From: Gemmatimonadales bacterium
GTDB taxonomy: Bacteria > Gemmatimonadota > Gemmatimonadetes > Gemmatimonadales > GWC2-71-9
Direction: 5' to 3'
DNA length: 64,000 nt
NCBI GenBank assembly: GCA_038321865.1
Contig: JBBQFH010000015.1
Span: 1-64,000, forward strand
This document shows, piece by piece, positions 13,810 to 30,861 of the stretch (the stretch's first letter is position 1; each line of letters opens with the position of its first letter). The notes under the pieces are model-generated. The model searched no databases. It was given only the letters and a program-made list of their open reading frames with translations, and was not told the DNA's origin. A program made the translations under genes and the position numbers.

Positions 13810-16551
13810 TCAGTTGCCGCGCTGGCCCGTTCGTGCCCGCAGGTCGTTGAACCAGTTCTCCACGACCGTCACCGGCGCGTCGGCACCGGCCGAGTGCAGC
13901 TGGCGCGCCATCAGGAAGTGCTGGCCGTCGGGCATCAGCGCATATGGCGTGTAGTTCTCGGTCGGGCTGAGGTAGAGCGCAGCGTCGAGCTTGAACAACG
14001 TATGCCGCTCGCCGGTGGCGAACACGGCTCCGGGCAACACCGGCACCGAGATCATCTCGCGCGCCCCGTTGACGAACACGAGCTCGCGTCCGCCGGGCCC
14101 CCATAGCGGCGCCTGCCCCCCGCTGGTCGAGATCTGCCATTTCCCCGCGTCCACCGCGGGGAACGGCCGCACGTAGACCTCCACCTGGCCCGTCTCATTT
14201 GACTCATAGGCGATGAAGCGGCCGTCCGGCGAGAGCGCCGGCGCCGATTCATCGAACTCGGTGCTCACGAGCAGCGGGACCGACGCGGTGTCCACGCCGA
14301 GCCGGATGCCGCGGATGTCACGCCCGCCCACCTGGTTGATGACGCCGCCGGTCCGGAACACCAGCCACATGCCATCCCGGCTCCACGTGGCTTCATACAA
14401 GCCGAGGTCGATGTTGAGCAGGAGCGAATCGTGCCCGGTGCCATCGGCCAGCCGCGAATAGAGCCGCGCGCCGGGGATGCCGTGGATCGGCGCGCCCCGA
14501 ATGGACACGTACATCACCGACCGACCATCGGGCATCCACCGGGGCCGGAAGTCCGCCGCGGTGTCGAACGAGACGCGCGAGAGCGCGCCTCGGGGCAGAT
14601 GCTTGACCCAGATATCATCGCCTGAGCCGGTCGCGAGCCCGATCGCGACGCGCTCGCCGTCCGGCGACACCGACCACCCGGCGTTGTTCCCGAACGCGGC
14701 CATCCGGAACGTCCAGTCCGGATCCACCAGCACCGCGGTGCCGGCCCGATCGACCAGGACCATCTGGTACTGCTCCCCCGCCGACATCGCGCCGGAGCGG
14801 AGGATCAGCGTGCCGGTCCGCGAGATGGAGTAATACGGCAGCACGCCGATGCCGCTCATGACGCTGTCCAGCACCGGAACCGCCGAGCCGTGCAGCGTCG
14901 CCGAGCCGGGATCGAATCGCACGGCGAGCATCGCGCCGTCCCGCCGCAGGTAGACCAGATGCCCGGTGGCGACATAGTCACCGCTGACCACCCCCTGAAC
15001 CAGCGGCTTCGCGCGGTGGGTCTTGAGATCGAGCGCCCAGAGATCCTGCGTCAGCCCGCAGACCCCGCCTCGACAGTTGGTGAACAGGAGCATCCGGGAG
15101 CCCGGCAGCGCTCGCGGCAACACCGCCGGCACCGAATCGCCGCGATGCACGATTTCCGACGGACCGCCGTTCTCGTTGACCCGGCGGAGATTCCGGGTCA
15201 CCAGCTGGGAATAGACCAGCGAGTGATCGTCGAGCCAGGCGACGCCGGCCGTGGCGGCCGCGGAGTCGCCGATCGCGATCGCGGTGCCGCCCCCGAGCGA
15301 GAGCTTCCGAAGCTGGCCGCCGGAGGCGAAGGCGATCCACTCGCCGTCGGGCGAGAAGGTGAACACCCGGACGCCGACGGTGCCCGGTATCGGCACCGCG
15401 CCGACCCGGTCATGCTCCTTGAGCCAGAGCTGGGGCGCATTGGTGCTGGCGGGGCCCGGGCCGACATAGACGATCCGGCGCCCGTCGGGCGAGATCAGCG
15501 CCATCTCGCGCACCGCCTGCGACTCCGGCAACCCGAGCGCGAACCGCTGGAGCAGTGCAGCGGGACGGGGGCGAAGCCCGAGCCAGAGGGCGGTCATGCC
15601 GAGCAGCAGCGCCAGGCCGCCGAGCGGAAGGGCGAGCCACGCACGGAGGCTGCTGAGGCGTTGCGCTGCGCGACCGGTGGCCACAGTCGCTCGCGTCGCC
15701 ACCGCACTGGTATCGCCCAGCGCCGTGGCGAACTCCGCGGCGGTCGCGTAGCGGTCGGCGGGCAGCTTCTCCAGCGCGGTCAGCACGGCCACCTCGACGT
15801 GGGGCGGGATGCTCCGCCGCTGCGGCACCATGGGACGCGGCGTCTCGGTCACCACCCGGGCGACGATCGCCTGCGCGGAGGAGCCGGTGAACGGCGGGTC
15901 CCCCGTCAGCATCTCGTAAGTGATGCAGCCCAGTGCGTAGACGTCGGAGCGCGCCGTGATCTCGCGCTCCCCCATCGCCTGCTCGGGACTCATGTAGTGC
16001 GGCGTGCCGAGACTCATCCCGGTCTCGGTCATCCGGCTGCCGCCCGCCTTGCTGGCGGCGAGCGCGATGCCGAAGTCGGCCACCAGCGCCGACCCGTCGT
16101 GGAGGAGGATGTTCTCCGGCTTGATGTCCCGGTGGATCACCCCGTGGCGATGGGCGTACCCCAGCGCCGACGCCACCTCCGACGCGATGCGCATCGCATC
16201 GGGGACCGGCAGCTGCTTCTCGCGGCTGAGCCGGTCGCGGAGACTCTCACCCTCGATGTAGGGCATGACGTAGAAGAGGAAGCCGTCCGCCTCGCCCGAG
16301 TCGTGCAGCGGCAGGATGTGCGGGTGCTGGAGATTGGCCGTGGTCCGGATCTCGGCCAGGAACCGCTCGGCGCCGATCACGGCCGCGAGCTCGGGCCGGA
16401 GCACCTTGATGGCCACCTGCCGTCGGTGCTTGAGATCCTCGGCGAGGTAGACCGTGGCCATGCCACCGGCCCCGAGCTCGCGCTCGAGGCGATAGCGGTC
16501 GGCGAGGGCGGCCGAGAGCCGGTCAGGAACCGTTATGTCGCGGGAATCCAC
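13810..16551 (-). CDS. K6: Ser/Thr kinase-TM-beta-propeller
   Basis: 913-aa ORF; kinase motifs; ALSPDGRFIAYESNETGQVEVYVRPFP propeller tail. Confidence 0.93.
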   Translation of the reverse strand: MDSRDITVPDRLSAALADRYRLERELGAGGMATVYLAEDLKHRRQVAIKVLRPELAAVIGAERFLAEIRTTANLQHPHILPLHDSGEADGFLFYVMPYIEGESLRDRLSREKQLPVPDAMRIASEVASALGYAHRHGVIHRDIKPENILLHDGSALVADFGIALAASKAGGSRMTETGMSLGTPHYMSPEQAMGEREITARSDVYALGCITYEMLTGDPPFTGSSAQAIVARVVTETPRPMVPQRRSIPPHVEVAVLTALEKLPADRYATAAEFATALGDTSAVATRATVATGRAAQRLSSLRAWLALPLGGLALLLGMTALWLGLRPRPAALLQRFALGLPESQAVREMALISPDGRRIVYVGPGPASTNAPQLWLKEHDRVGAVPIPGTVGVRVFTFSPDGEWIAFASGGQLRKLSLGGGTAIAIGDSAAATAGVAWLDDHSLVYSQLVTRNLRRVNENGGPSEIVHRGDSVPAVLPRALPGSRMLLFTNCRGGVCGLTQDLWALDLKTHRAKPLVQGVVSGDYVATGHLVYLRRDGAMLAVRFDPGSATLHGSAVPVLDSVMSGIGVLPYYSISRTGTLILRSGAMSAGEQYQMVLVDRAGTAVLVDPDWTFRMAAFGNNAGWSVSPDGERVAIGLATGSGDDIWVKHLPRGALSRVSFDTAADFRPRWMPDGRSVMYVSIRGAPIHGIPGARLYSRLADGTGHDSLLLNIDLGLYEATWSRDGMWLVFRTGGVINQVGGRDIRGIRLGVDTASVPLLVSTEFDESAPALSPDGRFIAYESNETGQVEVYVRPFPAVDAGKWQISTSGGQAPLWGPGGRELVFVNGAREMISVPVLPGAVFATGERHTLFKLDAALYLSPTENYTPYALMPDGQHFLMARQLHSAGADAPVTVVENWFNDLRARTGQRGN

Positions 16552-16596
16552 GCAGTGAGTCTAGCGCGCAACGGGCGAGCGCGTCAGGGGCGCCGA

Positions 16597-17061
16597 TCAG
16601 CCGAGGTCGGGCTGCCTGTCCCAGTACGCCAGCACTTGCCGCGCCAGATCCAGTGCGCTGATCTGATCGCCGAACGCCGCCGCCGTCTCGCCGGTGAGGT
16701 CGACCGTCAGCCGCCCCCGGCCGAAGTGCCACCCGAAGTAGGCGCCGAGGTAGTTGGCGAAGTAGCCGCCCCGGCGGGTGGCGTCGCCGCTCCGCCCCCG
16801 GCGCTCGTGCACCCGGAGCACCTTCACTCCGCGCGCGAGCTCCGACGTGAGCGCGACCAGCGGGAGGCTCCTGGTCGCGGCGCGGGCACCGGCATCATCG
16901 GGAAAGCGCCAGTCGACCATCCGGTCGGCGGTCAAGAAGAAGTTGAAGGCGACGTCCGCGTCGCCGGGATCGGTGCCGAGCCTGCTGTAGTCGCGCCGGA
17001 GCTTCTCGCGGAGGTCGGTCGCCGATTTCATCGCGCAAAACCCGTCGTCTGCGTCACGCAT
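16597..17061 (-). CDS. Hypothetical helical protein (possibly degenerate HEPN-like)
   Basis: 154-aa ORF filling the gap between K6 and K7; AFNFFLTADRMVDW motif. Confidence 0.55.
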   Translation of the reverse strand: MRDADDGFCAMKSATDLREKLRRDYSRLGTDPGDADVAFNFFLTADRMVDWRFPDDAGARAATRSLPLVALTSELARGVKVLRVHERRGRSGDATRRGGYFANYLGAYFGWHFGRGRLTVDLTGETAAAFGDQISALDLARQVLAYWDRQPDLG

Positions 17062-19320
17062 CCGCTGCCCCGCTCTCGCCTGTGGTTGCTGAATCAGTGC
17101 TCCGTCGCCATCACGCTTCGCCGGCCGGGCGCCATCAGTCTACCCTCCGACGCGGCGAAGGGTTAGGGGCGTGCTTCCCAGCGGCCCGGGCCCGCGGTAC
17201 CTTCCCTCCGATTCCCCACACCAAGGACCAAAACCTGTCCGACCCGAGAGCGGCGCTCCAGGCGGGACTGGCCGGCCATTATACCATCGAGCGCGAGCTG
17301 GGCCGCGGCGGCATGGCCACGGTCTATCTCGCGCACGACATCCGGCACGACCGGTCCGTCGCCCTCAAGGTGCTGCACCCCGATCTCGCCCACGCCCTCG
17401 GCCCCGAGCGCTTCCAGCGGGAGATCCGGCTCGCCGCCCGGCTGCAGCATCCGCACATCCTCACCGTCCACGATTCCGGCGAGGCCGCCGGCCAGCTCTG
17501 GTTCACCATGCCCTTCGTCGAGGGCGAATCGCTTCGCGACCGGCTCAACCGCGAGAAGCAGCTCCCGCTCGATGACGCGCTCCGGATCGCGCGCGAGTCG
17601 GCGGAGGCGCTCGACTACGCCCATCGCCATGGCGTGATTCACCGGGACATCAAGCCCGAGAATCTCCTGCTGTCGGAGACGCACGCGCTGGTCGCCGACT
17701 TCGGCATTGCCCGCGCGCTCAGCACCGGCAGCGGCGGCGAGAACCTCACCGAGACGGGTACTTCGATCGGCACGGCGGCGTACATGAGCCCGGAGCAGGC
17801 CGCCGGCGAGCGCGACCTCGACGCCCGCTCCGACATCTACAGCCTGGCGACGGTGCTGTACGAAATGCTGGCCGGCCAGACGCCCTTCACCGCCGCGACG
17901 CCGCAGGCGATGATCGCGCGGCGCTTCACCGAGACGCCCAAGCCGCTCGACCAGGTGCGCGACAGCGTCCCGCCGGCGATCGCGCAGGCAGTACAGAAGG
18001 CGCTCGCGCGCACTCCGGCCGACCGCTTCGCCTCCGCCGGCGACTTCGCGCGCGCCCTTGCTACCGTCGCCGCGGTACCGACGCCGACGCAGCCGCTGGC
18101 GGCCGTCACTGCTGCCCCCGCGCCCGCGCGTCGCCGTACCCCCGTCGCGCTCATCACCCTCGTCATCGGTTTCGCGATCGGGCTCGGCGTCCTCTTCGCC
18201 TGGCGCCGCGATCACGGCAACGACCCCCGCGCCGGCGTGCGCCGGCTCGCCGTCCTTCCCTTCGAGAATCAGGGTGCCGCCAGCGACGACTACTTCGCCG
18301 ACGGGCTGACCGAGGAAGTCCGCGGCAAGCTCACCGCCCTCCCGGGCCTGCAGGTGACGGCGTCCACCAGCTCGAGCCAGTACCGGAAGAGCACCAAGCC
18401 GCTCAGGCAGATCGCCACCGAACTGGGTGTCGACTATCTGCTGGTGGGCAAGGTGCGGTGGGAGAAGCGGGCGGACGGCACCAGCCGGGTCCGCGTCAGT
18501 CCGGAGCTGATCGACGTCGCGACCGGCGCCTCGAAGTGGCAGGAGCCGTTCGACGCCGCGATCACCGATGTCTTCCAGGTGCAGTCGGAGATCGCGGCGC
18601 TGGTGGCGGGCAAGCTCGACGTCGCGCTCACCGACAGCGTGAAGACTCGGCTGGACGCGCAGCCGACGAAAAACGTCGCGGCCTACGACGCGTATCTGCG
18701 GGGTAAAGCCATTACCGCCAACGATCCCGCAGCCTTGCGGGCGGCGGCGGCCGCCTATGAGCAGGCGGTCGCGCTCGATCCGTCGTTCGCACTCGCGTGG
18801 GGTGCGCTTGGCATGAGCTACTCGATACTGTACGTCAACGGGGTTCCATCACCCGCTCTGGCGCGATCGGCGCGCCGCGCGGCGGGACGCGCCATTGCGC
18901 TCGAACCAAACAATGCATCCGGCTACCTGAGCCTTTCGAGTTATTTCCGGAATGTCGACCCCCGGCCGGATTCGGCGCAGGCCGCGCTCGCGACCGTCCT
19001 TCGACTGGATCCGTCCAGTCCTCGCGCGCTTGGAGCACGGAGCGCGCAGGAACAGACCGAGGGACGCTGGGAAGCGGCACTGGCCGATGCGCAAGCGGCG
19101 GTCGATCGTGATCCGCGTGCAGCCAACCGCTGGGTCTTCACAACCAGTCTCCTCTCGCGCCTTGGCCGCTATTCGGAAGCGCGGATCGCGGGTGATCGCG
19201 CGATGCAGCTCGCGCCGACCGACCCGCAGGTGGCCCAGGCACGCATAAGGGTGGATCTGATGGCCGGCGACCTGGCCGCCGCGCGCGCCGTGCTGAAGCG
19301 CTCTCCGGTGGATCCCGTGA

Positions 19321-19329
19321 CGCTCGCGA
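19321..19329 (+). repeat. Target-site duplication, left copy (CGCTCGCGA)
   Basis: Identical 9-mer at 24518-24526 directly outside the other element end. Confidence 0.95.
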
Positions 19330-19369
19330 GGTAGTGGCCCTATTTGATGTAACAGCCAAGCGCCCCCAC

Positions 19370-19399
19370 AAAAAGGCGCTGCGGGCTGCCCGCAGCGCC
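19370..19399 (-). terminator. Intrinsic terminator after the TA operon
   Basis: On the minus strand: GGCGCTGCGGG-cag-CCCGCAGCGCC (11-bp stem) followed by TTTTT. Confidence 0.8.
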
Positions 19400-19421
19400 T
19401 CCATCCGTCCGTTGCCCTCCC

Positions 19422-19730
19422 CTATGCCGCGTTCTTCGCGCTCCCTGCGTCCTCGACAGGCCGGGGGATCATGATGACCTTCACGATTTCGACCCTGTCG
19501 TCGTCGAACCGGTACGCAAGAAGAAGGGCGCCAGGCATACCCCGCCAAAGCTGAGACCGAACCACCCATAACCCATCAGTCCCCGCAATCTCGACGCCCG
19601 ACTTCGGATCCCGAGCAAGCCGCCAAATGAGCCCATCAAACAGATCTCGAAGGCGGAGATGACGCTTGGCCTCGGCGTCGATAAAATCAGACACACCACG
19701 AGCCTCAACGACCCCGCGCGCGAATGCCAT
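19422..19730 (-). CDS. Putative toxin partner of the Panacea antitoxin (possible RelE/ParE-like fold)
   Basis: ATG overlaps the antitoxin stop (TAATG); 102 aa (MAFARGVVEA...LLLAYRFDDDRVEIVKV); size and predicted beta-alpha-alpha-beta pattern resemble RelE/ParE. Confidence 0.6.
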   Translation of the reverse strand: MAFARGVVEARGVSDFIDAEAKRHLRLRDLFDGLIWRLARDPKSGVEIAGTDGLWVVRSQLWRGMPGALLLAYRFDDDRVEIVKVIMIPRPVEDAGSAKNAA

Positions 19731-20260
19731 TAGGCGGCAACCGCACCTTCGCGCGCCCATGCAACGTCCTCGGCCGTCACCTCGCCCAGGGTGACGGCGA
19801 GCATCGCATGGTATGGAATCTCCTCGCCGATTTCAGCGATTTCCCAAATGTCGTCGTGGGTCCGGTCGCTGATTTCCCGTGCGGTGTGCTGGTGACATAC
19901 AAAGTCAATAGCCTTGTCGATCACGCTGATCTCCTGCGCCGAGAAAATCGAGAGTTCCGGCTCCGTCAGCGCAATGAACTCACGCTTCATGTACGTGTCG
20001 TACTGCCGGTCGCGAGTGACGATAGCGCCCTCTGACTCAAGCTCGCCAATGATCGTGAGAATCGTACGAGGCACTGGGCCGTACTGCCGCTTCACGTATG
20101 TTTCACCAGTAATCGGCACGCCGGTGCGGATGTACGACCAGAGGTCAGAGACCCACAGCGCCTTGTTGAGCTTCGTAGCTCCAAGGACAGCGGGGTTCTC
20201 GCACTTCCAGCATACATAATGCGTCAGCGCCTTCAACTTCTTGGCATCTCTCGTGACCAA
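19730..20260 (-). CDS. Panacea (SocA-like, DUF4065) domain antitoxin
   Basis: LGATKLNKALWVSD...PITGETYVKRQYGPVP...SDRTHDDIW motifs; GAGGAGG RBS before TTG. Confidence 0.85.
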   Translation of the reverse strand: MVTRDAKKLKALTHYVCWKCENPAVLGATKLNKALWVSDLWSYIRTGVPITGETYVKRQYGPVPRTILTIIGELESEGAIVTRDRQYDTYMKREFIALTEPELSIFSAQEISVIDKAIDFVCHQHTAREISDRTHDDIWEIAEIGEEIPYHAMLAVTLGEVTAEDVAWAREGAVAA

Positions 20261-20305
20261 CGGATCCTCCTCAGGTCCAGGGACATCCCGGATCTACCCA
20301 ACCAT

Positions 20306-20335
20306 AATGTACACGACCCGAATATTTCCCGTCAA
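20306..20335 (-). promoter_or_regulatory. Putative sigma70 promoter of the TA operon
   Basis: TTGACG-N18-TACATT on the minus strand. Confidence 0.5.
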
Positions 20336-20343
20336 TAACGCAA

Positions 20344-21198
20344 TCACCTGACGGTGCAGGTAGGGTCCATCATGTCGAGCACGTTGTCCCACGTCCACAC
20401 CCGGTTGGTCAGCCCCGCCGCCATTGCGGGCGTCGTCTTGGCCCGCGCCGCCTTGGTGAGCGTGCCGTGCGCCCGGATGAAGTTGTGGGCGAAGAAGGTC
20501 AGGTTCACGGCGAACGCATGGTGCTCGGCCTTCTTCGAGAAGGCATTCGTCAGCCGGGTGAAGCGGCGGCAGTTCTGCCTGGTGTTCAGGTTCAGCCGCT
20601 CGACGTAGGACGTTGAGGCGAGGTCCATGTCGGGCTTCCCGATCCGGCGCTCCTTGAGGATGCCTATGCAGACCGGCGGGCTGTAACGCCGCGCCGGTCC
20701 CTGCTCCCCGCTCTGGCCGAACACCTTCACCAGCTGCGCGTAATCGCAGCGGGCGAAGTCGAAGGCCTTCCGCACACCCTCCAGGTACGCACCCCATCCG
20801 TCCGTCGTCAGCTGCACGCGATTCGTCAGGCGCAGCGCCATATCCGCGACGAACGCATGGGTGTTCGCCGCGCTGCGAGCGCCCACCAGCCAGTTAATCA
20901 CCAGCTTGGAGTCGGCGTCGATGGCGCAAAAGGTCCATATATCGCCGTGCCCGTCCTGCGTAGCGTTCCGGGCCTTCGCGCCGACATAGCTCCACTGCTC
21001 ATCGGCCTCAACGCGGGTCGTGTTCAGGTTCCGCACCCGCAGGTCGCTGTACGCCTCGACGAACTCGCCGACCTCAGCCAACAACCGCAGGACCGTCCCA
21101 CGCGACGCGCTGGTCAGGCGGCTGGTCGCACGGGCCGACATGCCTTCGGTGAGGCACTTGAGGATCATGGCGCGGGTGTTGTTTGGCGTCTTGTTCAT
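20344..21198 (-). CDS. IS1-family DDE transposase (single ORF, N-terminal HTH)
   Basis: EGMSARATSRL HTH; ADEQWSYVGAK; TTDGW; STSYVERLNLNTRQNCRRFTRLTNAFSKK. Confidence 0.92.
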   Translation of the reverse strand: MNKTPNNTRAMILKCLTEGMSARATSRLTSASRGTVLRLLAEVGEFVEAYSDLRVRNLNTTRVEADEQWSYVGAKARNATQDGHGDIWTFCAIDADSKLVINWLVGARSAANTHAFVADMALRLTNRVQLTTDGWGAYLEGVRKAFDFARCDYAQLVKVFGQSGEQGPARRYSPPVCIGILKERRIGKPDMDLASTSYVERLNLNTRQNCRRFTRLTNAFSKKAEHHAFAVNLTFFAHNFIRAHGTLTKAARAKTTPAMAAGLTNRVWTWDNVLDMMDPTCTVR

Positions 21199-21204
21199 AC
21201 CCTA

Positions 21205-21270
21205 AATGTATGCTTGAGCGGTCAAGAAGTCAAGGGAATAAGCAAGCATTACGGCTTGCGAATGCTTGCT
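21205..21270. promoter_or_regulatory. Leaderless transposase promoter with palindromic operator-like sites
   Basis: Minus strand TTGACT-N17-TACATT-N6-ATG; CTTGA-N4-TCAAG in the spacer; perfect inverted repeat AGCAAGCATT-N10-AATGCTTGCT at 21241-21270. Confidence 0.6.
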
Positions 21271-21325
21271 GGTCAAGCTATGCTTGCTACGTCCGAACAG
21301 CAAGCATCTTCCGGGAGGCGGAGCG

Positions 21326-22387
21326 GTGGACGACGAAACCATAGATCCAAGAGTGAAGGGGGGCATCGCGCGGCGTGATGCCCTGTCGCCGGAACGCAGG
21401 CAAGAGATCGGTCGAAAGGGTGCTGAGGCGCGGTGGAATAGCGGGATGCCGCGAGCGACCCACGAGGGCGTAATCGAGATCGGCGCGGCTGAAATCGTCT
21501 GCGCGGTACTGGAAGACGGCCAGCGAGTCCTGACCCAAAGCTCGTTCATGAAGGCTCTTGGCAGGTCCCGCCAGGCCAAAGGACGCCAGTATTTCGCTAG
21601 TGACGCCGATATGCCAGCTTTTCTTACTGCGCACAATCTTAAGCCATTCATTTCCAATGACTTAGCTGTGTCGTCGTCTCAGATCGAATTTCGCCCGCTG
21701 AAGGGTGGTCGGGCGTTCGGCTACTCTGCCGACCTCTTGCCGTTGGTCTGCGAAGTCTTTCTCGACGCCCTGGAGGCGAAGAAGGTCCTCAAGAGCCAGA
21801 TGCACATCGCGGAGCGTGCCAAAATTCTCCATCGCGGCCTGTCGCGCGTCGGCATCGCGGGGCTCGTGGACGAAGCAACCGGCTATCAGGAGGTGCGGGA
21901 TCGGATGGCGCTGCGGGCCATCCTCGACACCTACGTCAGCAAGGAGTTGGCGGCGTGGGAGAAGCGGTTCCCGGATGATTTCTACAGGGAGATGTATCGC
22001 CTTCGCGGATGGGAGTGGAAGTCTGGAACCACAAAACGCACTCACGCCGTAGCGCAGTACACGAAAGACCTCGTGTATATGCGCATCGCGCCGGAGCTGC
22101 TAGCGGCGCTGGAGAAGTTGAATCCGACCGATGAGAAGGGGCATCGCAAGGCCCACCATCACCGCTGGCTTTCCGTCGATGTAGGCCAGCCCGCACTAGC
22201 ACAACACTTCATCGCCCTCTTGGCGCTCATGAAAGCAGCGGACACGTGGGACCAATTCAAGGCGATGGTGAAACGGTCGCTCCCGTACGTCTCGAAGGTC
22301 GATGACCTGCCAATGTTCAGGACTATGAGCGATCCCAACGTGCCAGCGCAGCTTTCTTCGCAATCGCAGAGCGCTCCTTCGACGTGA
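21326..22387 (+). CDS. P63C domain protein
   Basis: GGAGG RBS and GTG start; CAVLEDGQRVLTQ, GIAGLVDEATGYQEVR, WEKRFPDDFY and KAHHHRWLS motifs. Confidence 0.85.
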   Translation: MDDETIDPRVKGGIARRDALSPERRQEIGRKGAEARWNSGMPRATHEGVIEIGAAEIVCAVLEDGQRVLTQSSFMKALGRSRQAKGRQYFASDADMPAFLTAHNLKPFISNDLAVSSSQIEFRPLKGGRAFGYSADLLPLVCEVFLDALEAKKVLKSQMHIAERAKILHRGLSRVGIAGLVDEATGYQEVRDRMALRAILDTYVSKELAAWEKRFPDDFYREMYRLRGWEWKSGTTKRTHAVAQYTKDLVYMRIAPELLAALEKLNPTDEKGHRKAHHHRWLSVDVGQPALAQHFIALLALMKAADTWDQFKAMVKRSLPYVSKVDDLPMFRTMSDPNVPAQLSSQSQSAPST

Positions 22388-22571
22388 GCTTTGCAGCGCG
22401 AGCCCTCCCGCCTTTGAGCCCTCCCAGGCGCCCAAGGGCCACGGCAGCCGGGTTTTTCGCCGGCTCCGGATAGGTCGGATCATCTGGTGGGGTGCCGGTC
22501 AGCCGATCGACAACCCACTTGGCGGCGAGGATCGGGTCGGAGGGCGGTAGCGTGCTTGAGCGCTTGGGCAT
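22323..22571 (-). CDS. Small basic protein (KNPAAVALGRLGGLKGG...ARW type)
   Basis: 82-aa ORF MPKRSS...GGRARAAKLTSKERSAIAKKAALARW; shares its motif with the P63C N-terminus. Confidence 0.75.
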   Translation of the reverse strand: MPKRSSTLPPSDPILAAKWVVDRLTGTPPDDPTYPEPAKNPAAVALGRLGGLKGGRARAAKLTSKERSAIAKKAALARWDRS

Positions 22572-22577
22572 GTCCTG

Positions 22578-22585
22578 AGTATACT
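22578..22585. promoter_or_regulatory. Symmetric -10 element (AGTATACT), putative bidirectional leaderless promoter
   Basis: TATACT reads on both strands, 5 nt before the MTase ATG and 6 nt before the small-protein ATG. Confidence 0.5.
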
Positions 22586-22590
22586 ACGTC

Positions 22591-23757
22591 ATGCCCCGAC
22601 AAGCCAACCCGCTCGCTGATACTCCCCAGCAATTCCCGTTGTGGGAGACTGACGCGAGCGCGGAGGACCCCGATTACCTAGCACGCCAGCTTATCACCTA
22701 CATCGGCAATAAGCGGGCGTTGCTCCGTCACATCGGCACGGCGGTTGACCAGGTGAAACGGCGAACCGGCAAGCGACGCCTTCGGGTGTTCGATGCGTTC
22801 AGCGGGTCGGGAGTCGTCTCGCGGTTCCTCAAGGCTCATGCTTCCTACGTCGCTACCAATGATCTTGAGGACTACGCAGCGGTAGTGGGCAGATGCTACC
22901 TGCGGAACCGCAGTGAGGTAGACGCTCCGCTCCTGGCGCGCCTCGTTCAGGAGATGAACGCCAACGTCGCCACGTCGGCCTTTGCGCCGGGCTTCATCGA
23001 AGAGCTCTACTCTCCCAAAGATGAAGCGAACATCAGGCCCGAGGACCGTGTGTTCTATACGAAGGAGAATGCGCGGCGGCTCGACAACTATCGGCGCATG
23101 ATCGCGGGAGTGCCGAAAGACTTGCACGACATGTTGCTCGCGCCGCTGATCAGCAAGGCTTCCATCCATGCGAACACGGCCGGCGTGTTCAAGGGATTTT
23201 ACAAGAGCCGCGAAACCGGCGCCGGCCACTTCGGCGGGAGCGGATCCGACGCACTCCTGCGAATCCGTGGCGAAATCCAACTTGAGCTGCCGATACTCAG
23301 TCGGTTCGAGTGCGAGTACGAGGTGTTCCAGGAGGACGCGAATACAGCCTTTCGTAAGGTGCGTGACCTCGACCTGACCTACGTCGATCCGCCGTACAAC
23401 CAACACCCGTATGGATCGAATTACTTCATGCTAAACCTGCTGGTGGGGTACCAGCGTCCTGCCGCAATCAGCGCGGTATCTGGCATCCCGACCGACTGGA
23501 AGCGGTCGGGTTACAACGTTCGATCCAAGTCACTTCCCCTACTTCGGCAAATCTTGGAAGGGATCGACTCTCGGTTCCTGCTCATTTCCTTCAACAACGA
23601 AGGATTTATCTCCCCGGAAGCCATGCGAGCGATGCTTGCCGCACTCGGCTCGGTCGAAGTGTTTGAAACGACCTACAACGCGTTCCGTGGAAGCCGCAAC
23701 TTCACAAAGCGGCCCCTACACGTTACCGAACAGCTGTTTCTTGTTGAGCGGAAATAG
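22591..23757 (+). CDS. N6-adenine DNA methyltransferase, D12 class
   Basis: ITYIGNK; DAFSGSGVVS (SAM binding); YVDPPYN (catalytic). Confidence 0.9.
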   Translation: MPRQANPLADTPQQFPLWETDASAEDPDYLARQLITYIGNKRALLRHIGTAVDQVKRRTGKRRLRVFDAFSGSGVVSRFLKAHASYVATNDLEDYAAVVGRCYLRNRSEVDAPLLARLVQEMNANVATSAFAPGFIEELYSPKDEANIRPEDRVFYTKENARRLDNYRRMIAGVPKDLHDMLLAPLISKASIHANTAGVFKGFYKSRETGAGHFGGSGSDALLRIRGEIQLELPILSRFECEYEVFQEDANTAFRKVRDLDLTYVDPPYNQHPYGSNYFMLNLLVGYQRPAAISAVSGIPTDWKRSGYNVRSKSLPLLRQILEGIDSRFLLISFNNEGFISPEAMRAMLAALGSVEVFETTYNAFRGSRNFTKRPLHVTEQLFLVERK

Positions 23758-23761
23758 CGTC

Positions 23762-24484
23762 ATGGCAAGAAAAGATCAACTTCGCGGGCAGCGCACAGGG
23801 ACAATTATCAACGTTACGTCGTTGGCCCAAGAGTCCGACGTGATGCGTGCACTCGGCCTCGTCGTTACGCACCTACAGGCCAAGTTCGGGGCTAAAGTCG
23901 TACTGGTTCTCGAAAAACAATGGCTACTCAAGAACATTGTATCCGAGCTGCGCCAAAGCTATCCCGACATGGATTTCCATTATCATTTTGAAAACACCTC
24001 CATCCGACCGGACGGCGGATTCCTCTACATCAAGGGCCTTCCTGGCGACAAGTTGACCTATCCAATCCTGATTACTGAAGTGAAGAACCAAGGGACGAAC
24101 GACCTGCGCGCTCAAGAGGGGCTGGCGAAGCAAGCCAGAGGGAACGCGATTGAGCGACTAGGCAAGAACCTAGTCGGGTTACGGACCGCCCTCATGCGTG
24201 AAACAATCTTCCCGTTCGTGTGCTTCGGTTACGGATGCGACTTTGAAGACACCTCGTCCATACTTGATCGCGTTTCCACGATGGCAATGTTCGGCAAGCT
24301 GAATACGACTCACCTCCACAACGAAGAAGGCGGCAAGTTCAACCGTGGAAGCTTCTATTTCCGGTCTGAGAAGTGGACGGTGGACGAAATGGCCGTCGTT
24401 ATGCGAGATATCGCGGAACGTTCCGTCCTGTACTACTTCTCCAAGTATCGGGAGGACCATTTCTTACAACCCGCTGACGCCTAG
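23762..24484 (+). CDS. EcoRI-family type II restriction endonuclease
   Basis: IRPDGG...EVKNQG (PD..ExK) and GNAIER, matching EcoRI catalytic and recognition segments; directly downstream of the MTase. Confidence 0.85.
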   Translation: MARKDQLRGQRTGTIINVTSLAQESDVMRALGLVVTHLQAKFGAKVVLVLEKQWLLKNIVSELRQSYPDMDFHYHFENTSIRPDGGFLYIKGLPGDKLTYPILITEVKNQGTNDLRAQEGLAKQARGNAIERLGKNLVGLRTALMRETIFPFVCFGYGCDFEDTSSILDRVSTMAMFGKLNTTHLHNEEGGKFNRGSFYFRSEKWTVDEMAVVMRDIAERSVLYYFSKYREDHFLQPADA

Positions 24485-24517
24485 CCCCCGTGTAACAAGT
24501 CAAATGGGGCCACTACC

Positions 24518-24526
24518 CGCTCGCGA
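24518..24526 (+). repeat. Target-site duplication, right copy (CGCTCGCGA)
   Basis: Identical to 19321-19329. Confidence 0.95.
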
Positions 24527-25111
24527 CATACATGAGCATCTACAACGACCTGTACTGGGTGCTGCCGGACCAGGACCTCGACGTCGTCCTGCGCCTCGGG
24601 CCGTCGTCGTTCGACGACGATCGCGCCTCCTGGGCCATCGTAATGGCCCAGATCCATGCATTGCGAGGCGATGCCGCGCGTACGCGGATCTACGCCGACT
24701 CGGCCCGCCTGGGGTTCGCCGACCAGTTAAAGACGAGCCCCCAGGACGCGCAGCTCCACGTGCTGTATGGTTTCAGCCTCGCCTATCTGGGCCGCAAGGC
24801 GGAAGCGATCGCCGAGGGCGAACGCGGTGTCGCGCTCAAGCCGACGACCATGGACGCGGTCACCGGCGCCTATCTGGCCCATCAGCTCGTCCGTATCTAC
24901 CTGCTCGTCGGCGAGCAGGAGAAGGCGCTCGACGGGATCGAGGCGCTGATGAAGCTGCGCTACTTCCTGTCACCGGGGTACCTGCGGATCGACCCGGGTT
25001 TCGCGCCGCTCCGGAACAACCCGCGCTTCCAGAAGCTGACTTCGGCGAGCTAGCCGGCGCCGGCTGCGGCCCGGTACTGACGTGCCGAACGACGATCGCT
25101 TCATCGCCGGG

Positions 25112-25795
25112 TCAGAGCTTCACATCCACGACCACCGGCCGGTGGTCCGACACCCCCGCCCACTCCGCGAACCCGCCCACCGTCACCGCCTGCACCCTCC
25201 ACCCCGCCGGCACGAAGCAGTAGTCGAGGTGAAACGGATGCGCCTCGTTCCACTGCCAGTAGTAGGTGGGCTCTGGCTCCTCCCCCTGCTTCACCCCCCG
25301 CGCCAGATGATACGCGCTCACCAGCCCGAACTCCTCCGCCAGCCGGGCCACCACGCGCGAGTGGTCCACCGGCCGGCTGGCCCGGTCCCAGATGGCGTTG
25401 CTGTTGAGGTCGCCGGCGAGGACGACCGGGCGGCCCGCCATCCAGTTCCGCGCCCGCCTGAGGTCGGCCGCGAGGCCGGCGATGTAGCCATGCGATTGGT
25501 GGGTCCAGACGGCGAGGAGCCCGAAGGCGGCCCGGCCGCCGATCTCCGCCGCCCGGCAGGCGACCAGCCCCCTGGGGCCGGCGCTCGGCCGGACGGTGTA
25601 GCCGTTCCGGGTGACGATGGCGACGCCGTATCGGCCGTTGATCGGCAACCATACGGCGTCGTCGGTCGGCGACACCTCGGCCGGCCGCGCCGCCTCCTGC
25701 AGGATGAGCACGTCGGCGCCGAGTAATGCCGCCGCCGCCACCTTCTTCTCGAACGGCCCGCGGCAGCAGTTCCAGGTGGCGATGCGGATGCGGAG
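25112..25795 (-). CDS. Endonuclease/exonuclease/phosphatase (EEP) family protein; start uncertain
   Basis: LRIRIATWN, LQE, LAGDLN, HLDYCF and SDHRPV motifs. The N-terminal motif lies upstream of the tracked GTG at 25741. Confidence 0.85.
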   Translation of the reverse strand, partial: LRIRIATWNCCRGPFEKKVAAAALLGADVLILQEAARPAEVSPTDDAVWLPINGRYGVAIVTRNGYTVRPSAGPRGLVACRAAEIGGRAAFGLLAVWTHQSHGYIAGLAADLRRARNWMAGRPVVLAGDLNSNAIWDRASRPVDHSRVVARLAEEFGLVSAYHLARGVKQGEEPEPTYYWQWNEAHPFHLDYCFVPAGWRVQAVTVGGFAEWAGVSDHRPVVVDVKL

Positions 25796-25836
25796 CTCTC
25801 GAGAGGGTGGGACCGAAAGCTACGAGCCCGGAAGGG

Positions 25837-26529
25837 TCATCGCGAGGAGCCTCGGCACGCGACCGTCTTCGGGTGCCCCGCCCCGAGCTCACGCTCGAAG
25901 ATCGCCAGCGCGTCGGCATGAAGCGCCGCCGCCTCGGCGGCGTCACCCAGGCGCCGGCGGACGACAGCGAGATTATGCAGACTCACCGCCAGATCCGGAT
26001 GCCCCGCCCCCAGCGTCGCGGTCTTGATCGCGACCGCTCGGCGCAGCAGTTCCTCCGCTTCATCGATTCGCCCGCGCCGTTCGTACTGCGCGCCGAGATC
26101 GTTGAGCGCCACCGCGATCTCGACGGCGTTCTCCACCGGCGCGCACTCGAGCACCTCGAGCGCCTCGGCGTAGAGCCCCTCCGCCTCGTCGTACCGCTCC
26201 AACCCGTCGAGAATTGCCGCCAGCGCCACCTGATCCGCCGCGATCTCGCGGGGATCGGCACCGGACGCGAGACGGATCGCCAGGCCGCGGCGCGCCGGCG
26301 CTTCGCCCGCCGCGAAGTCACCAGCGGCGTGCGCGATCCCGCCGAGGTTGTGGTAGAGGGTGGCAATGGCCGATGGGGGCGGGTCCACGACGCGCTCGAG
26401 GAGGGCGAGGGCACGCTGATAGTGCGCCCTGCCCTCCTCGAACTGGCCCGCATCCTTGCACCGAAGCCCCCGGGCGTTGAGCGCGGCCGCGAGCGCCAGA
26501 TCGCCCGGCAGATCGGCCTCGCCCGGCAC
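25837..26529 (-). CDS. Tetratricopeptide repeat protein (kinesin-light-chain-like long TPRs)
   Basis: Repeats such as ATLYHNLGGI, AVALNDLGAQY and HPDLAVSLHNLA. Confidence 0.85.
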   Translation of the reverse strand: MPGEADLPGDLALAAALNARGLRCKDAGQFEEGRAHYQRALALLERVVDPPPSAIATLYHNLGGIAHAAGDFAAGEAPARRGLAIRLASGADPREIAADQVALAAILDGLERYDEAEGLYAEALEVLECAPVENAVEIAVALNDLGAQYERRGRIDEAEELLRRAVAIKTATLGAGHPDLAVSLHNLAVVRRRLGDAAEAAALHADALAIFERELGAGHPKTVACRGSSR

Positions 26530-26546
26530 GGCGGTGCGCGCCGGTG

Positions 26547-26729
26547 CTACCAGCCGGTCAGCATCGTCTCGTTGCGGTTGGACGAGAGCCGGGGCGTGAT
26601 CCGTTGCTCCAGCTCCTCGACGGTGAGCTCGATCGCTTCGCCGTCGAGGCCGGTGGCGGTCTTTACCTGACTCTTCTGTTCGCTGCTGAGCGGCAGCCGC
26701 ACGAGCGCGCCTGATTCGGGAGTGTGCAT
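26547..26729 (-). CDS. 60-aa peptide, candidate precursor or signalling peptide
   Basis: GAGGT RBS; ...EAIELTVEELEQRITPRLSSNRNETMLTGW; ends 17 nt before the TPR gene. Confidence 0.7.
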   Translation of the reverse strand: MHTPESGALVRLPLSSEQKSQVKTATGLDGEAIELTVEELEQRITPRLSSNRNETMLTGW

Positions 26730-26813
26730 CGGTACCTCAGGTCAATGGTTAAGCGATCGCCGGCGCCCGCAATCCATAATGCGTGGCCCGGGTCGACAAC
26801 GCCAGTTTCGGCC

Positions 26814-26921
26814 CGTCATTCCGAGCGCAGCGAGGAATCTGCCCCGCCCACCCCGACCATGGCGTCGCCAGCGATTCTCCGCCATGTCCGACCCAGATTC
26901 CTCGCTGCGCCCGGAATGACG
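26814..26921. repeat. REPIN-like inverted pair 1 (CGTCATTCCGAGCGCAGCGAGGAATCTG ... inverse)
   Basis: Arms at 26814-26841 and 26894-26921, one mismatch. Confidence 0.9.
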
Positions 26922-26931
26922 GAGGACCGCC

Positions 26932-27165
26932 CTAACTCGAGCGCTTGCGCGTGCTCTTCTTCGCGGCCTTCCGGGGCACCTTTGCCCCCTTCTTCCGCGC
27001 CTCGGACAGCCCGATGGCAATCGCCTGCGCGCGGCTCTTCACCTTGCTCCCCTTGCCGCCTTTCCCGCTCCTGAGGGTGCCGCTCTTCTCGCGGTGCACC
27101 GCGCTCTTGACGCTCTTGGCGGCCGCCTTCCCGTACTTGCGAGTCGCTCCCTTTTTGGCCGGCAC
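26932..27165 (-). CDS. DUF6496-like small basic protein
   Basis: HREKSGTLRSG...KVKSRAQAIAIGLSEAR motif. Confidence 0.8.
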   Translation of the reverse strand: MPAKKGATRKYGKAAAKSVKSAVHREKSGTLRSGKGGKGSKVKSRAQAIAIGLSEARKKGAKVPRKAAKKSTRKRSS

Positions 27166-27293
27166 GTGACCTCCCTGGTGAGATGTACGGAGCTGCGAGG
27201 ACGGGAGCTACGGTGGGCAACCAACCGGTGGTGGGCGGTGCGGAGTGTCACGCCGCGCAATGAGGTGAAGAGCGGCGCGCGCTGCCCCCGCCC

Positions 27294-27335
27294 CGTCATT
27301 CCGAGCGCAGCGAGGAATCCAGGTCGGGCATGACG
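27294..27335. repeat. Single REP-like arm with truncated partner
   Basis: CGTCATTCCGAGCGCAGCGAGGAATC followed by ...GGGCATGACG; just downstream of the GIY-YIG gene. Confidence 0.85.
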
Positions 27336-27355
27336 GACGCCGGCTCGTGGCGCGA

Positions 27356-27664
27356 TCAGGCCTTCGCATTCTCCTCCCCGGACACGCCCACCCAGTCCCG
27401 AGCAAGATCCAGCCACCCCGCATTCACAGTTTCGATCAGCGTCACCTTCTTCGCGCGCGTCCACCGCTTGATCTCCTTCTCCCGCGCGATCGCCGACCTG
27501 ACGCTCGGCGTCTCCTCGAAATACACCAGCCGATTGATCCGATACCGCGCCACATGCGACCCGCACGCGTGCCGGTGCTCCAGCAGCCGGCGGGCGAGAT
27601 CGCGGGTCACGCCGACATAGAGTGAGCGGGATCGGCTGGCGAGGATGTAGACGTAGTAGCGCAC
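27356..27664 (-). CDS. Stand-alone GIY-YIG nuclease
   Basis: YYVYIL...LYVGVT..L..R..EH...LVYFE...AIAREKEIKRW.RAKK..LIE..N..W.DL; probable GTG start at 27664. Confidence 0.9.
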   Translation of the reverse strand: MRYYVYILASRSRSLYVGVTRDLARRLLEHRHACGSHVARYRINRLVYFEETPSVRSAIAREKEIKRWTRAKKVTLIETVNAGWLDLARDWVGVSGEENAKA

Positions 27665-27790
27665 CCGGTAGTGTGCCGACCGGCCCACAACTGAAACGCA
27701 AATGTCACCGAGGTAGCGTAGCGCAATCCTTGCCCTTCTTCGCGGCGCGACGGGCCACACCTCAACCGCGCCCCCACCTCACCAGCGCCC

Positions 27791-27940
27791 TCGCCTTCGC
27801 CCCGCCTTCGCCTTCGCCGCCCTTCGCCGCCCTTCGCCGCCCTTCGCCTTCGCGCGCCCGCTGCGTCAACCGCGCCTCCCCCCCCCATCAGCCGGGCCCC
27901 GCCCCGTCAGCCGCGCCCGCCCCGTCAGCCGCGCCCGCCC
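27791..27940. repeat. Short tandem repeats: CCTTCGCCGC x3 and an 18-nt GCCCGCCCCGTCAGCCGC unit
   Basis: Perfect 10-mers at 27811-27840; CCCGTCA units repeated up to the REP arm at 27941. Confidence 0.8.
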
Positions 27941-28048
27941 CGTCATTCCGAGCGCAGCGAGGAATCTGCTCCGCCCAGCTCGACCATCGCGTGACGAGCC
28001 GGGGTCCGCCGTGTCCGAGCCAGATTCCTCGCTTCGCTCGGAATGACG
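27941..28048. repeat. REPIN-like inverted pair 2
   Basis: Arms at 27941-27968 and 28021-28048. Confidence 0.9.
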
Positions 28049-28150
28049 GACGGGGGGTGGGGAATGACGGACGGGGGTTGGGCATGACGGACGGGGGGTC
28101 GGAATGTCGGCCGAGAGGTCGGAATGATGGCGGGGGAGCGGATGACTGAG
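28040..28150 (+). repeat. About six decaying ~20-nt tandem copies of the REP end (GGAATGACGGACGGGGGGT)
   Basis: Units start near 28040, 28061, 28081, 28101, 28121 and 28140. Confidence 0.8.
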
Positions 28151-28203
28151 GGGCGACTCTCGGAACGCCGGGGCGCACATGCCCGAATCTCTGCAGTGCC
28201 TCG

Positions 28204-30861
28204 TCAGCGCGCCGCCTCCCAGTGTTCCACCCACACCACTCGCGGGATCGTCTCCGCCCCATTCTCCCGCCGCGGGCTCAGGAAGATGAACCGTCCGTCC
28301 GGCGTCACGTCGAACGACTGGTGAAACCCGTCCAGCCGGAATCCGCTCGCGTCGAACAGGACGTCCACGCCGGAGACGCCAAACTCCGCTCCGCCGTTCA
28401 GATGCGCCGCGTTCATCCGCTTGGCGCCGTCGAGAAAGAACAGCGTCTTCCCGTCGCGCGACCAGCGCGGCTCGGAGCCGCCGTTGACCGACACCTGCCA
28501 GCGCGCCGTCGAGGTGTTGGGGAACGGCCGCACGTACAGCTCGAGGTTCCCTGACTCATTGGAGGCATACGCCAGCCAGCGTCCGTCCGGCGAAATCGCC
28601 GGCGTGAGCTCGGTGAACGGGCTCGCCACCAGGGGTACCGGCGTCGTGTCTCCCGTCAGCCGGACGCCGATCAGGTCGCCGGCACCGGTCGTGGCGTTGT
28701 CGGTGCGAAGAACGAGCCAGTTGCCGTCGGGCGACCAGACGATCTCCTGCGGCTGCACGGCGATCCGCGCCAGCAGCCGATCCGGGCTGCTCCCGTCGGC
28801 GGCCCGCGCCATGACGATGCTGGTGGTCCCGGTGTCCCTGATGAAAGCGACGGTCCGCCCGTCAGGCGACCAGGAGGGTCGCCGGTCGCGGCCGCCGAAG
28901 CTCAGCCGCGTGACCGGCCCACGATCGAGCTGCTTGATCCAGATGTTGAGGTCACCGACCCTGGCGCCCATCCCCAGCGCCACCCGTCCACCGTCCGGCG
29001 AGAGCGCGAGCGAGCTCGACGCGCCGTACCAGGCGGTATCGATCGGCGTCGCGGCGCCCGCGCTCGTGACCCGCACCGCCATGTTGAGCGAGCTGTTGGC
29101 GCCGCCCCGCACGTAGACCAGCGTGCCCGTGGACGAGGCGGCCAGGAGCGCGTAGCCGTTTCCGACCTGCACGCCGTTCATCACCGGCGTCCCCTGACCC
29201 CTGACCTCCAGCCGCTCGAGATCGAAGCCGGTGACCAGCGCGGTGCCGTCCCGCCGCACGTAGAGCAGCTGCCCGCTTCCCACGTACATCGCCGTCGCAA
29301 CGTCCGGCAGCAGGAGCTTCTGCTTCCCGGTACGAAGATCGAGCGCGTACATCGCCATCGTGATGCAGCCGGAGGTGCAGCCCTGGAAGAGCACGCCGCG
29401 CGATTTCGGCAATGAGACCGGCATTCCCAGGCCCCGCCCGCCGAGCCCCGAATCGCCGAACGCCACCGTCACCGCGCCCCCGGCCGAGCTCACCCGGCGG
29501 AGCTGATCGATCTGCGGAGAGGCATAGATCAGCGTGCCGTCATCGAGCCAGGCGGCACCGCCGTAGCCGCCGGCGGCCGAATCGGCGATAGTGGTCGCCG
29601 CGCCGCCGCCGACGCTGATCTTCTTGAGCTGGCCGTCGGCGACAAAGGCGATCCAGGCACCGTCGGGCGAGAACGTGGGGTTCTGCGCCCGCTCGGTGCC
29701 GGGCAGCGGGACCGGCTCAAGCTGGTCGCGACGCTTGAGCCAGAGGCCGCGGCTCGGAGTCGCGTCGCGGTAGACCAGCATTGAGCCATCAGGTGACAGC
29801 GCGATCGACGGCACGGTGGTGAGCGGTGCGGTGCTGTCGCCGAGGAGCACGATGTTGCGGGACACGACGGCGCCGGCCGTCGAGGGACGCCGCCAGGCCC
29901 AGGCGGCAAAGGCGAGTGACGCGATCGCCACGACGGCGAGTCCGGCCATCAGCCCCGAGCGAATGCCGGGTGCGGCGGCCATGCTGCCGTGCGCCACGCT
30001 CGCCCGCGATCCCGTCGTCCCCCGCCCGCGGAGCCCCTCGGCGAACTCCGCGGCGCTGGCGAACCGGTCGGCCGGCAGCTTCTCCAGCGCCGTGAGCACG
30101 GCGGCTTCGATGGCGGGCGAAATGCTCTTTCGCTGCGGAATCAGCCGGCGTGGTTCCTCGGTCATCACCCGCGCCACGATCGCCTGCGCCGTGGAGCCGG
30201 TGAACGGCGGGTCCCCCGTCAGCATCTCGTAGGTGATGCAGCCCAGCGCGTAGACGTCGGAGCGCGCCGTGATCTCGCGCTCCCCCATCGCCTGCTCGGG
30301 GCTCATGTAGTGCGGCGTACCGAGACTCATCCCGGTCTCGGTCATCCGGCTGCCGCCCGCCTTGCTGGCGGCGAGGGCGATGCCGAAGTCGGCCACCAGC
30401 GCCGACCCGTCGTGCAGGAGGATGTTCTCCGGCTTGATGTCGCGGTGGATCACGCCGTGGCGATGGGCATAGTCCAGCGCGCTCGCGGTTTCGGTCGCGA
30501 TCCGCATCGCGTCGGGCACCGGCAGCTGCTTCTCGCGGCTGAGCCGGTCGCGCAGACTCTCGCCCTCGACGTAGGGCATGACGTAGAAGAGGTAGGAATC
30601 GGCGGCGCCCGAGTCGTGCAGCGGCAGGATGTGCGGATGCTGGAGATTGGCCGTGGTCCGGATCTCGGCCAGGAACCGCTCGGCGCCGATCACGGCCGCG
30701 AGCTCCGGCCGGAGCACCTTGACCGCGACCTTCCGGTCGTGCTTCAGGTCATGCGCGAGATAGACGGTGGCCATCCCGCCCGCCCCGAGCTCGCGCTCGA
30801 GGCGATAACGATCGGCCAGCGCGGCGCTCAGGCGGGCAGGCGCGCGGTCGGCGGCATCCAC
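28204..30861 (-). CDS. K8: Ser/Thr kinase-TM-beta-propeller
   Basis: 885-aa ORF; kinase domain nearly identical to K6; SPDG repeats. Confidence 0.93.
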   Translation of the reverse strand: MDAADRAPARLSAALADRYRLERELGAGGMATVYLAHDLKHDRKVAVKVLRPELAAVIGAERFLAEIRTTANLQHPHILPLHDSGAADSYLFYVMPYVEGESLRDRLSREKQLPVPDAMRIATETASALDYAHRHGVIHRDIKPENILLHDGSALVADFGIALAASKAGGSRMTETGMSLGTPHYMSPEQAMGEREITARSDVYALGCITYEMLTGDPPFTGSTAQAIVARVMTEEPRRLIPQRKSISPAIEAAVLTALEKLPADRFASAAEFAEGLRGRGTTGSRASVAHGSMAAAPGIRSGLMAGLAVVAIASLAFAAWAWRRPSTAGAVVSRNIVLLGDSTAPLTTVPSIALSPDGSMLVYRDATPSRGLWLKRRDQLEPVPLPGTERAQNPTFSPDGAWIAFVADGQLKKISVGGGAATTIADSAAGGYGGAAWLDDGTLIYASPQIDQLRRVSSAGGAVTVAFGDSGLGGRGLGMPVSLPKSRGVLFQGCTSGCITMAMYALDLRTGKQKLLLPDVATAMYVGSGQLLYVRRDGTALVTGFDLERLEVRGQGTPVMNGVQVGNGYALLAASSTGTLVYVRGGANSSLNMAVRVTSAGAATPIDTAWYGASSSLALSPDGGRVALGMGARVGDLNIWIKQLDRGPVTRLSFGGRDRRPSWSPDGRTVAFIRDTGTTSIVMARAADGSSPDRLLARIAVQPQEIVWSPDGNWLVLRTDNATTGAGDLIGVRLTGDTTPVPLVASPFTELTPAISPDGRWLAYASNESGNLELYVRPFPNTSTARWQVSVNGGSEPRWSRDGKTLFFLDGAKRMNAAHLNGGAEFGVSGVDVLFDASGFRLDGFHQSFDVTPDGRFIFLSPRRENGAETIPRVVWVEHWEAAR

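Follow-up and report, generated by a model that had tools for sequence, protein, structure and literature searches.

A stretch of 64,000 nucleotides from a Gemmatimonadales bacterium (assembly GCA_038321865.1, contig JBBQFH010000015.1, positions 1 to 64,000; hereafter the window) contains, at positions 19330-24517, a 5,188-bp element with a single IS1-like transposase, inserted in a Ser/Thr kinase gene (K7). The best explanation for it, which we consider likely to be correct, is a unit transposon that carries cargo genes and belongs to a family related to IS1. The element is bounded by terminal inverted repeats (IRs) that match at 17 of 18 positions (GGTAGTGGCCCTATTTGA on the left and its inverse on the right) and by a perfect 9-bp target-site duplication, CGCTCGCGA. 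It contains seven open reading frames (ORFs), all intact. Removal of the element in silico together with 9 bp created a kinase-TPR ORF of 924 aa, which aligned without gaps over the join with four full-length paralogues (52-60% identity). Removal with 7, 8 or 10 bp gave 752, 981 or 751 aa, and another removal length gave 927 aa. Both kinase halves are devoid of stops. A preliminary description of this DNA had reported the IRs, the duplication, the length of the unit and the in-frame restoration of K7, and our recheck of the sequence bore all of them out.

When, as a check on chance occurrence, the genome (3.4 Mb) was searched for 18-bp inverted repeats with at most three mismatches, spaced 0.7-20 kb apart and accompanied by a 9-bp direct repeat, 8 places were found; seven of these have three mismatches, and this element is the only one with a single mismatch. 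Its GC content is 59%, as compared with 69% for the genome. No inner ends were detected when the element was scanned with the end profile of the family (see below), the best inner position scoring -3 bits; inner IRs of a smaller insertion sequence (IS), which the preliminary description had named as evidence that would count against its reading, were thus not seen. A composite transposon was excluded, since there is one transposase and there are no inner ends; the proposal of a non-composite, single-transposase IS1-like unit with restriction-modification (RM) and toxin-antitoxin (TA) cargo is supported. Contigs of a public sequencing run (X1), which may be the source sample, span both junctions. 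The host genome contains 76 kinase-domain paralogue matches, and because of these the loss of the kinase gene was probably cheap and tolerated. We also noted at least 13 Ser/Thr kinase genes within 1385-55140 of the window, one of which (33408-34162) appears split.

The transposase is made from one ORF, without a frameshift, and has no N-terminal zinc finger (one Cys among the first 60 residues). Its DDE triad is intact, and these residues are invariant across 27 homologues. It scored 51.6 bits with PF03400 (cut-off 24.1). NF033558 was the best of four transposase models, with 73.5 bits, which is under its cut-off of 100. The IS1595 model NF033547 gave only 20.4 bits for a cut-off of 75, which excluded the IS1595 family. 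Close homologues are named 'IS1 family transposase' in their sources, and the GGTAGTG ends and 9-bp duplication fit the usual pattern of the IS1 family (GGnnnTG, 8-9 bp). Classical IS1 elements have two frames joined by a frameshift, an N-terminal zinc finger and a length of less than 1 kb. The single 284-aa ORF, the lack of a zinc finger and the length of 5,188 bp excluded a classical IS1 (InsA/InsB). Two classical IS1 loci that we delimited measured 766 and 774 bp, each with an 8-bp duplication. In an unrooted tree, 44 transposases of the cargo-bearing family were split from 18 classical IS1 fragments by a 100/100 branch; the 18 loci that served as outgroup are all that a single-protein scan of species genomes returned. 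The Brevundimonas jumbo phage ON529850.1 also has, at 174791-175537, a transposase homologue (35% identity) that is not annotated.

Homologues of the transposase are numerous, making up at least 8,000 protein clusters. Matches were found in 29 of 401 genomes sampled from the host's phylum (two unpublished ones entering this tally only), and family members are also present on viral contigs and plasmids. We gathered 190 loci, drawn from Gemmatimonadota genomes, from metagenomes (the best 80 of 584 matches), from viral sequences (the best 80 of 197) and from 4 plasmids, and learned the end profile iteratively from them by a procedure that rewarded duplications. Both ends were found in 120 loci, corresponding to 111 distinct elements of 1,323-5,188 bp (median 3,175), that of the window being the longest. 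Where the flanks were long (94 loci), the two ends were recovered in 83 cases and a perfect duplication of at least 8 bp in 67. The duplication measured 8 bp in 81 of the 111 elements and 9 bp in 6, five of which are from Gemmatimonadota; two elements had an imperfect duplication and 22 had none. The length of about 9 bp, which the preliminary description gave as typical of classical IS1, is thus found in the present element but is not the usual one in its family. The survey of homologous transposases that it had proposed showed that relatives do carry variable cargo between the same IRs. The profile is specific, because it matched merely five places in the host genome, four of which are the ends of the window's element and of a second family member. 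A lone end-like site (G000:C30:1454, 12.5 bits) was noted, beside which no partner or transposase was seen.

The second member in this genome (L001 7959-11899, i.e. G000:C3:91958-95898) measures 3,941 bp and has decayed ends and an 8-bp duplication. Its transposase is 47% identical to that of the window, and its cargo consists of a 242-aa gene of unknown function and an N6/N4 methyltransferase; it lies just upstream of a gene that resembles, by eye, a signal-recognition-particle GTPase. The duplication was absent in 18 of 59 distinct elements on viral contigs versus 4 of 52 elsewhere, a difference that may result from adjacent deletions or from recombination in phage genomes. At 19 of 85 target sites of the family (13/45 cellular or metagenome sites and 6/40 viral sites), TTGAC was found at a distance of precisely 7 bp beyond the duplication, often followed by a -10-like box, which places these insertions just upstream of promoters. 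This pattern does not hold at the insertion in the window.

Besides the transposase, the elements have a second conserved gene, encoding a small basic protein. A profile built from these elements detected it in 106 of the 111, always upstream of the transposase and on the same strand; neither the flanks (1.37 Mb) nor the 18 classical IS1 loci contained a match. This gene is core equipment and not a passenger. The preliminary description had counted six passenger genes: the RM and TA genes stand as cargo, the small basic gene has to be withdrawn from the list, and the gene for a P63C-domain protein is a recurrent occupant of a middle slot (12 of 111 elements).

The small protein is probably a repressor, as suggested by candidate operators near the starts of both core genes. 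Of 108 transposase promoters, 37 contain a half-site, CGCTCAAGCAT (with at most one mismatch), as do 22 of 101 small-gene starts, compared with 29 of 19,613 flank windows. In the window, half-sites occur at 21210 and at 22552, the latter in the first codons of the small gene, and the -35 box of the methyltransferase (MTase) gene falls, as a consensus match, inside an operator-like site. Both core genes look leaderless, the commonest distance between -10 box and ATG being 6 nt. Ten longer proteins also contain the basic motif of the small protein as a fusion; nine of these have P63C, among them the P63C protein of the window, which bears the motif at its N-terminus. An AF2 model of the small protein consists of three helices (pTM 0.39); Foldseek returned nothing at E ≤0.001, and the best VIA hit (Z 5.8) was at chance level. 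An outward promoter built on the operator was rejected as a family rule: 6 of 101 elements have one, versus a mean of 1.5 and a maximum of 5 after shuffling. No Rfam match was found within 14000-30000. Five TGCTTG/CAAGCA boxes cluster at 21210-21310, in the 130 bp that separate the start of the transposase gene from that of P63C, and could be extra operators for P63C.

The RM cassette consists of adjacent genes for a D12-class MTase and an EcoRI-like restriction endonuclease (REase), with intact catalytic motifs, and is thus a type II RM system. The catalytic and recognition motifs of the REase are conserved in 112-120 of 120 homologues. AATT cutters are known, and on this ground and the likeness to EcoRI our guess, by analogy, is that the target is centred on AATT. 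The host genome avoids neither AATT (observed/expected 1.2) nor GAATTC (1.08), which is uninformative on the recognition site. A 19,170-bp Gemmatimonadales contig, which encodes MEO5798506.1 and MEO5798508.1, specifies proteins with 96% identity to the MTase and 98% identity to the REase. The IS1 transposase of that contig is 74% identical to the present one and two accession numbers away from the MTase; RM and transposase genes are therefore apparently adjacent there, as judged from these numbers and from the size of the contig. The gap between the identities of the RM proteins and of the transposases suggests that cassettes have been swapped.

The second cassette associates a Panacea/SocA (DUF4065) antitoxin gene with a putative toxin gene, the ATG of which overlaps the Panacea stop (TAATG). 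The toxin had no Pfam match, and only 2 of 89 members of its family were weakly ParE-like; by Foldseek, its predicted structure was closest to ParE2 (E 3.7e-4), followed by HigB2. The Panacea gene is thus coupled to a gene for a toxin fold, and the pairing is kept elsewhere, since the toxin family is found 3' of Panacea in one other locus (L259) and, distantly, in two more (L140 and L201). A model of the Panacea-toxin complex scored 0.82, versus 0.02 for the best control; the mark used was attained by 116 of 157 solved complexes, as against 2 of 215 mismatched pairs. The runs agreed in at least 94% of contacts, with a partner pLDDT of at least 84, and the predicted interface is formed by the C-terminal residues 149-173 of the antitoxin, outside the Pfam domain. 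Binding of the toxin by Panacea is therefore supported at the level of modelling. The hairpin that may terminate their transcript is absent from the consensus-scan list. The Panacea protein search returned no viral loci. By eye, the homologous pair in L259 (31-1788) adjoins an IS1595-like transposase, so that such pairs may ride a second IS family.

The family has three slots for passenger genes, one on the outer side of the small gene, one that separates the two core genes and one beyond the transposase, and the element of the window is the only one of 88 scored in which all three are filled. We scanned 150 of 165 representatives of cargo clusters, using heuristic ORF calls, and found PADLOC matches (E ≤1e-10) for 23 of the 150, whereas a control set of 150 flank ORFs of matched length gave 5 (Fisher p = 5e-4, the rows not being independent). 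The matches included RosmerTA-like pairs, type I RM, GmrSD, PD-Lambda-5, IetA and SoFic; most of the scanned proteins had no Pfam match. PADLOC-matched families occur in 44 of the 111 elements, and in 58 when TA-type Pfam labels, some of them assigned by judgement, are added. As such labels are carried by 23 (on a strict count) to 58 of the 111 elements, defence cargo is a bias and not a rule. Among ten pairs of elements with transposases at least 80% identical, only two have any cargo family in common. The turnover of cargo modules thus outpaces the divergence of the transposase, and probably proceeds by recombination between elements.

Taken together, these data are consistent with the following mechanism. 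The fixed parts of the element are the two 18-bp ends, the DDE transposase and the small basic protein, with passengers in the three slots, and as a unit with one transposase it took the RM, TA and P63C genes along together and duplicated 9 bp. After cleavage by the transposase at the two ends, the complete 5.2 kb would have been inserted in the kinase gene, the duplication being staggered. InsA represses the transposition of classical IS1. The small protein could likewise act in trans, repressing both core genes by binding CGCTCAAGCAT-type operators, which lie at the transposase promoter and within the opening codons of its own gene. The RM pair would methylate host DNA and cleave DNA that enters without this methylation, probably at a site centred on AATT, while Panacea would bind and neutralise the RelE-fold toxin; both cassettes could favour retention of the element, and cassettes would be swapped by recombination between elements. 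The insertion may be recent, as judged from the intact ends and ORFs.

Several observations weigh against parts of this scheme. At the threshold of one mismatch, 71 of the 108 transposase promoters lack the operator half-site, and sharing of at least 12 bp, seen in 30 of 99 same-element pairs, is only about twofold more frequent than in different-element pairs (27/196). Searches of Pfam, NCBIfam and PDB sequences did not link the small protein to any known DNA-binding family. A homologue of the toxin and a Panacea gene lie about 1 kb apart, and are not adjacent, in one locus (L177). Without the HTH-peptidase and PDC candidate models, a named defence gene is found in only 23 of the 111 elements. 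The sister element on the 19,170-bp contig is known from its proteins alone, its ends being unseen; its DNA was not found in 401 + 401 genomes, in viral contigs searched with the exact end pattern or in 301 genomes of the order. Finally, neither an empty allele nor a second copy of this element was found. In five genomes of the same genus, the long matches to the insertion site were kinase paralogues of at most 77% identity. One public run holds the stretch (X1 again), no RNA run being listed, and none of the 15 displayed joints of its contigs skipped the element (18 more joints were not displayed). Read depth was lower inside than beside the element, with paralogues summed, and we draw no inference from it.

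A bolder interpretation is that the family has a two-gene chassis, not described before, that serves the exchange of defence modules, with a repressor acting in trans on a palindromic operator, three slots that swap cassettes between diverged elements, and partial targeting to TTGAC. Because the -35 box of the RM promoter would come from the operator, the RM genes would be co-regulated with transposition. We put this forward as a tentative proposal, which may well be incorrect.

Among the alternatives to a defence-carrying transposon, it is possible, though rather doubtful, that the element is as we describe it and that its cargo serves the element only, as addiction modules or neutral hitch-hikers with negligible protection against phages. 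This would fit with the rarity of AATT sites in DNA of 69% GC and with the 53 of 111 elements that have no defence- or TA-labelled cargo. It would also fit with the lack of avoidance of AATT and GAATTC in the host genome, although a recent arrival would look alike, and with the description of Panacea pairs as TA systems, the term 'phage defense' occurring 0 times in the main text of PMC8832971. However, matches to tested anti-phage systems are more frequent among the cargo of the family than among flank genes, and the motifs of the REase are intact and widely conserved, as indicated above. That the element is an old, immobile relic, the ends of which merely look intact, is improbable: it is present in one copy, with no empty allele seen, and the second member in the genome has decayed ends, but the perfect duplication, the 17/18 match of the ends, the seven intact ORFs and the stop-free kinase halves argue against this, as do RM proteins 96-98% identical to those of another genome in the presence of transposases that differ by 26%. 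A small IS or a composite transposon inside a defence island of other origin is hardly credible, because inner ends are absent, the duplication flanks the outer ends and the REase stop is 16 bp from the end, and because the RM homologues (49-81% identity; both or part of the pair) found without transposase or paired ends in 3/3 Gemmatimonadales and 3/3 viral loci, like the TA pair that adjoins an IS1595-type transposase by eye in L259, indicate possible sources of cargo and not cargo outside this element.

Table 1. Features of the element and of the interrupted kinase gene, with positions in the window.
Feature	Position	Strand	Evidence
5' part of interrupted Ser/Thr kinase-TPR gene (K7)	17082..19329	+	Pkinase + TPR matches
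Target-site duplication, left copy, CGCTCGCGA	19321..19329	+	
Terminal inverted repeat, transposase-downstream side	19330..19347	+	19.9 bits, family end profile
Hairpin + T run, candidate terminator of Panacea-toxin transcript	19370..19399	-	RNA fold -27.6 kcal/mol
Putative toxin, 102 aa, RelE/ParE fold	19422..19730	-	AF2 pLDDT 92.6
Panacea/SocA (DUF4065) antitoxin, 176 aa	19730..20260	-	PF13274 E 2.7e-16
Panacea promoter-like site	20335-20306	-	consensus scan
Single-ORF IS1-like DDE transposase, 284 aa, D66/D133/E200	20344..21198	-	PF03400
Transposase promoter TTGACT-17-TACATT, 6 nt from ATG, operator-like site at 21210 between boxes	21205..21233	-	
P63C-domain protein, start probably GTG at 21326, preceded by GGAGG	21326..22387	+	PF10546 E 2.6e-32, phrog_2384
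Small basic protein, 82 aa, family core gene, putative autorepressor	22323..22571	-	profile search
Overlapping divergent MTase/small-gene promoters, palindromic -10 box AGTATACT in common	22556..22607	.	consensus matches only
D12-class N6-adenine MTase, 388 aa, FSGSG + DPPY intact	22591..23757	+	MTase_II E 1.2e-105
EcoRI-like type II REase, 240 aa, PDGG...EVK + GNAIER intact	23762..24484	+	EcoRI E 3.2e-9
Terminal inverted repeat, transposase-upstream side, 16 bp from REase stop	24500..24517	-	22.2 bits
Target-site duplication, right copy	24518..24526	+	
3' part of interrupted kinase gene, stop-free	24527..25053	+	

Elsewhere in the window, a 25-bp repeat is present in seven copies (26816-28046 and 33126-33229), six of which form three inverted pairs about 100 bp apart. 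They surround a gene for a GIY-YIG nuclease (27356-27760) and resemble REP-like repeats with a linked nuclease.

Annotation pipelines label elements of this type as plain 'IS1 family transposases' and thereby overlook units of 2-5 kb with defined ends. As precise ends delimit the cargo, the family could be used as a sieve for new defence and TA genes. The copy in the window would be a good bench model, with its seven intact genes, an EcoRI-like enzyme and an unnamed family of RelE-fold toxins.

Comparison with known systems shows that passenger-bearing IS are an already known class and that the preliminary description overstated the novelty of this one. The ISMhu11 subgroup of the IS1 family, which Siguier et al. 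are said to have treated in 2009 and 2015, reportedly includes members with passenger genes, e.g. a methyltransferase, and is said to have a single ORF, a helix-turn-helix without a zinc finger, GG...TG ends and larger sizes. To our knowledge, no small core gene, operator or defence bias has been described for this subgroup. We found no description of the present family in the main texts of the openly accessible literature, subscription papers being outside the scope of the search. With classical IS1, the element shares the PF03400 domain, the GGT...TG ends and a duplication of 8-9 bp, but its transposase is only 22-27% identical to the classical ones and its length is 5.2 kb.

The REase aligns with EcoRI over the PD...EXK core and the GNAIER segment, but it is about 27% identical to it and is partnered by a D12-class MTase; type II RM systems of the EcoRI family are treated in PMC4081073. 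In its main text, PMC8832971 describes Panacea (PanAT) systems as type II TA systems, with partners related to mRNA interferases and RNases, and shows direct complexes. The present pair resembles them in that a DUF4065 antitoxin is coupled to a toxin gene; it differs in that its toxin family has no Pfam match, though Dataset S1 of that paper may list the pair. As for the element as a whole, transporter IS (tIS) are treated as a described class in the main text of PMC9330008, are confined to IS1595 and IS66 according to the accessible part of the TnCentral preprint that defines them (10.1101/2021.05.26.445724), and are present in several IS families according to the main text of PMC7986276. The element corresponds to this definition, having one transposase, two IRs, a short duplication and passenger genes between its ends, to which it adds a conserved second core gene and a slot-like arrangement of its cargo.

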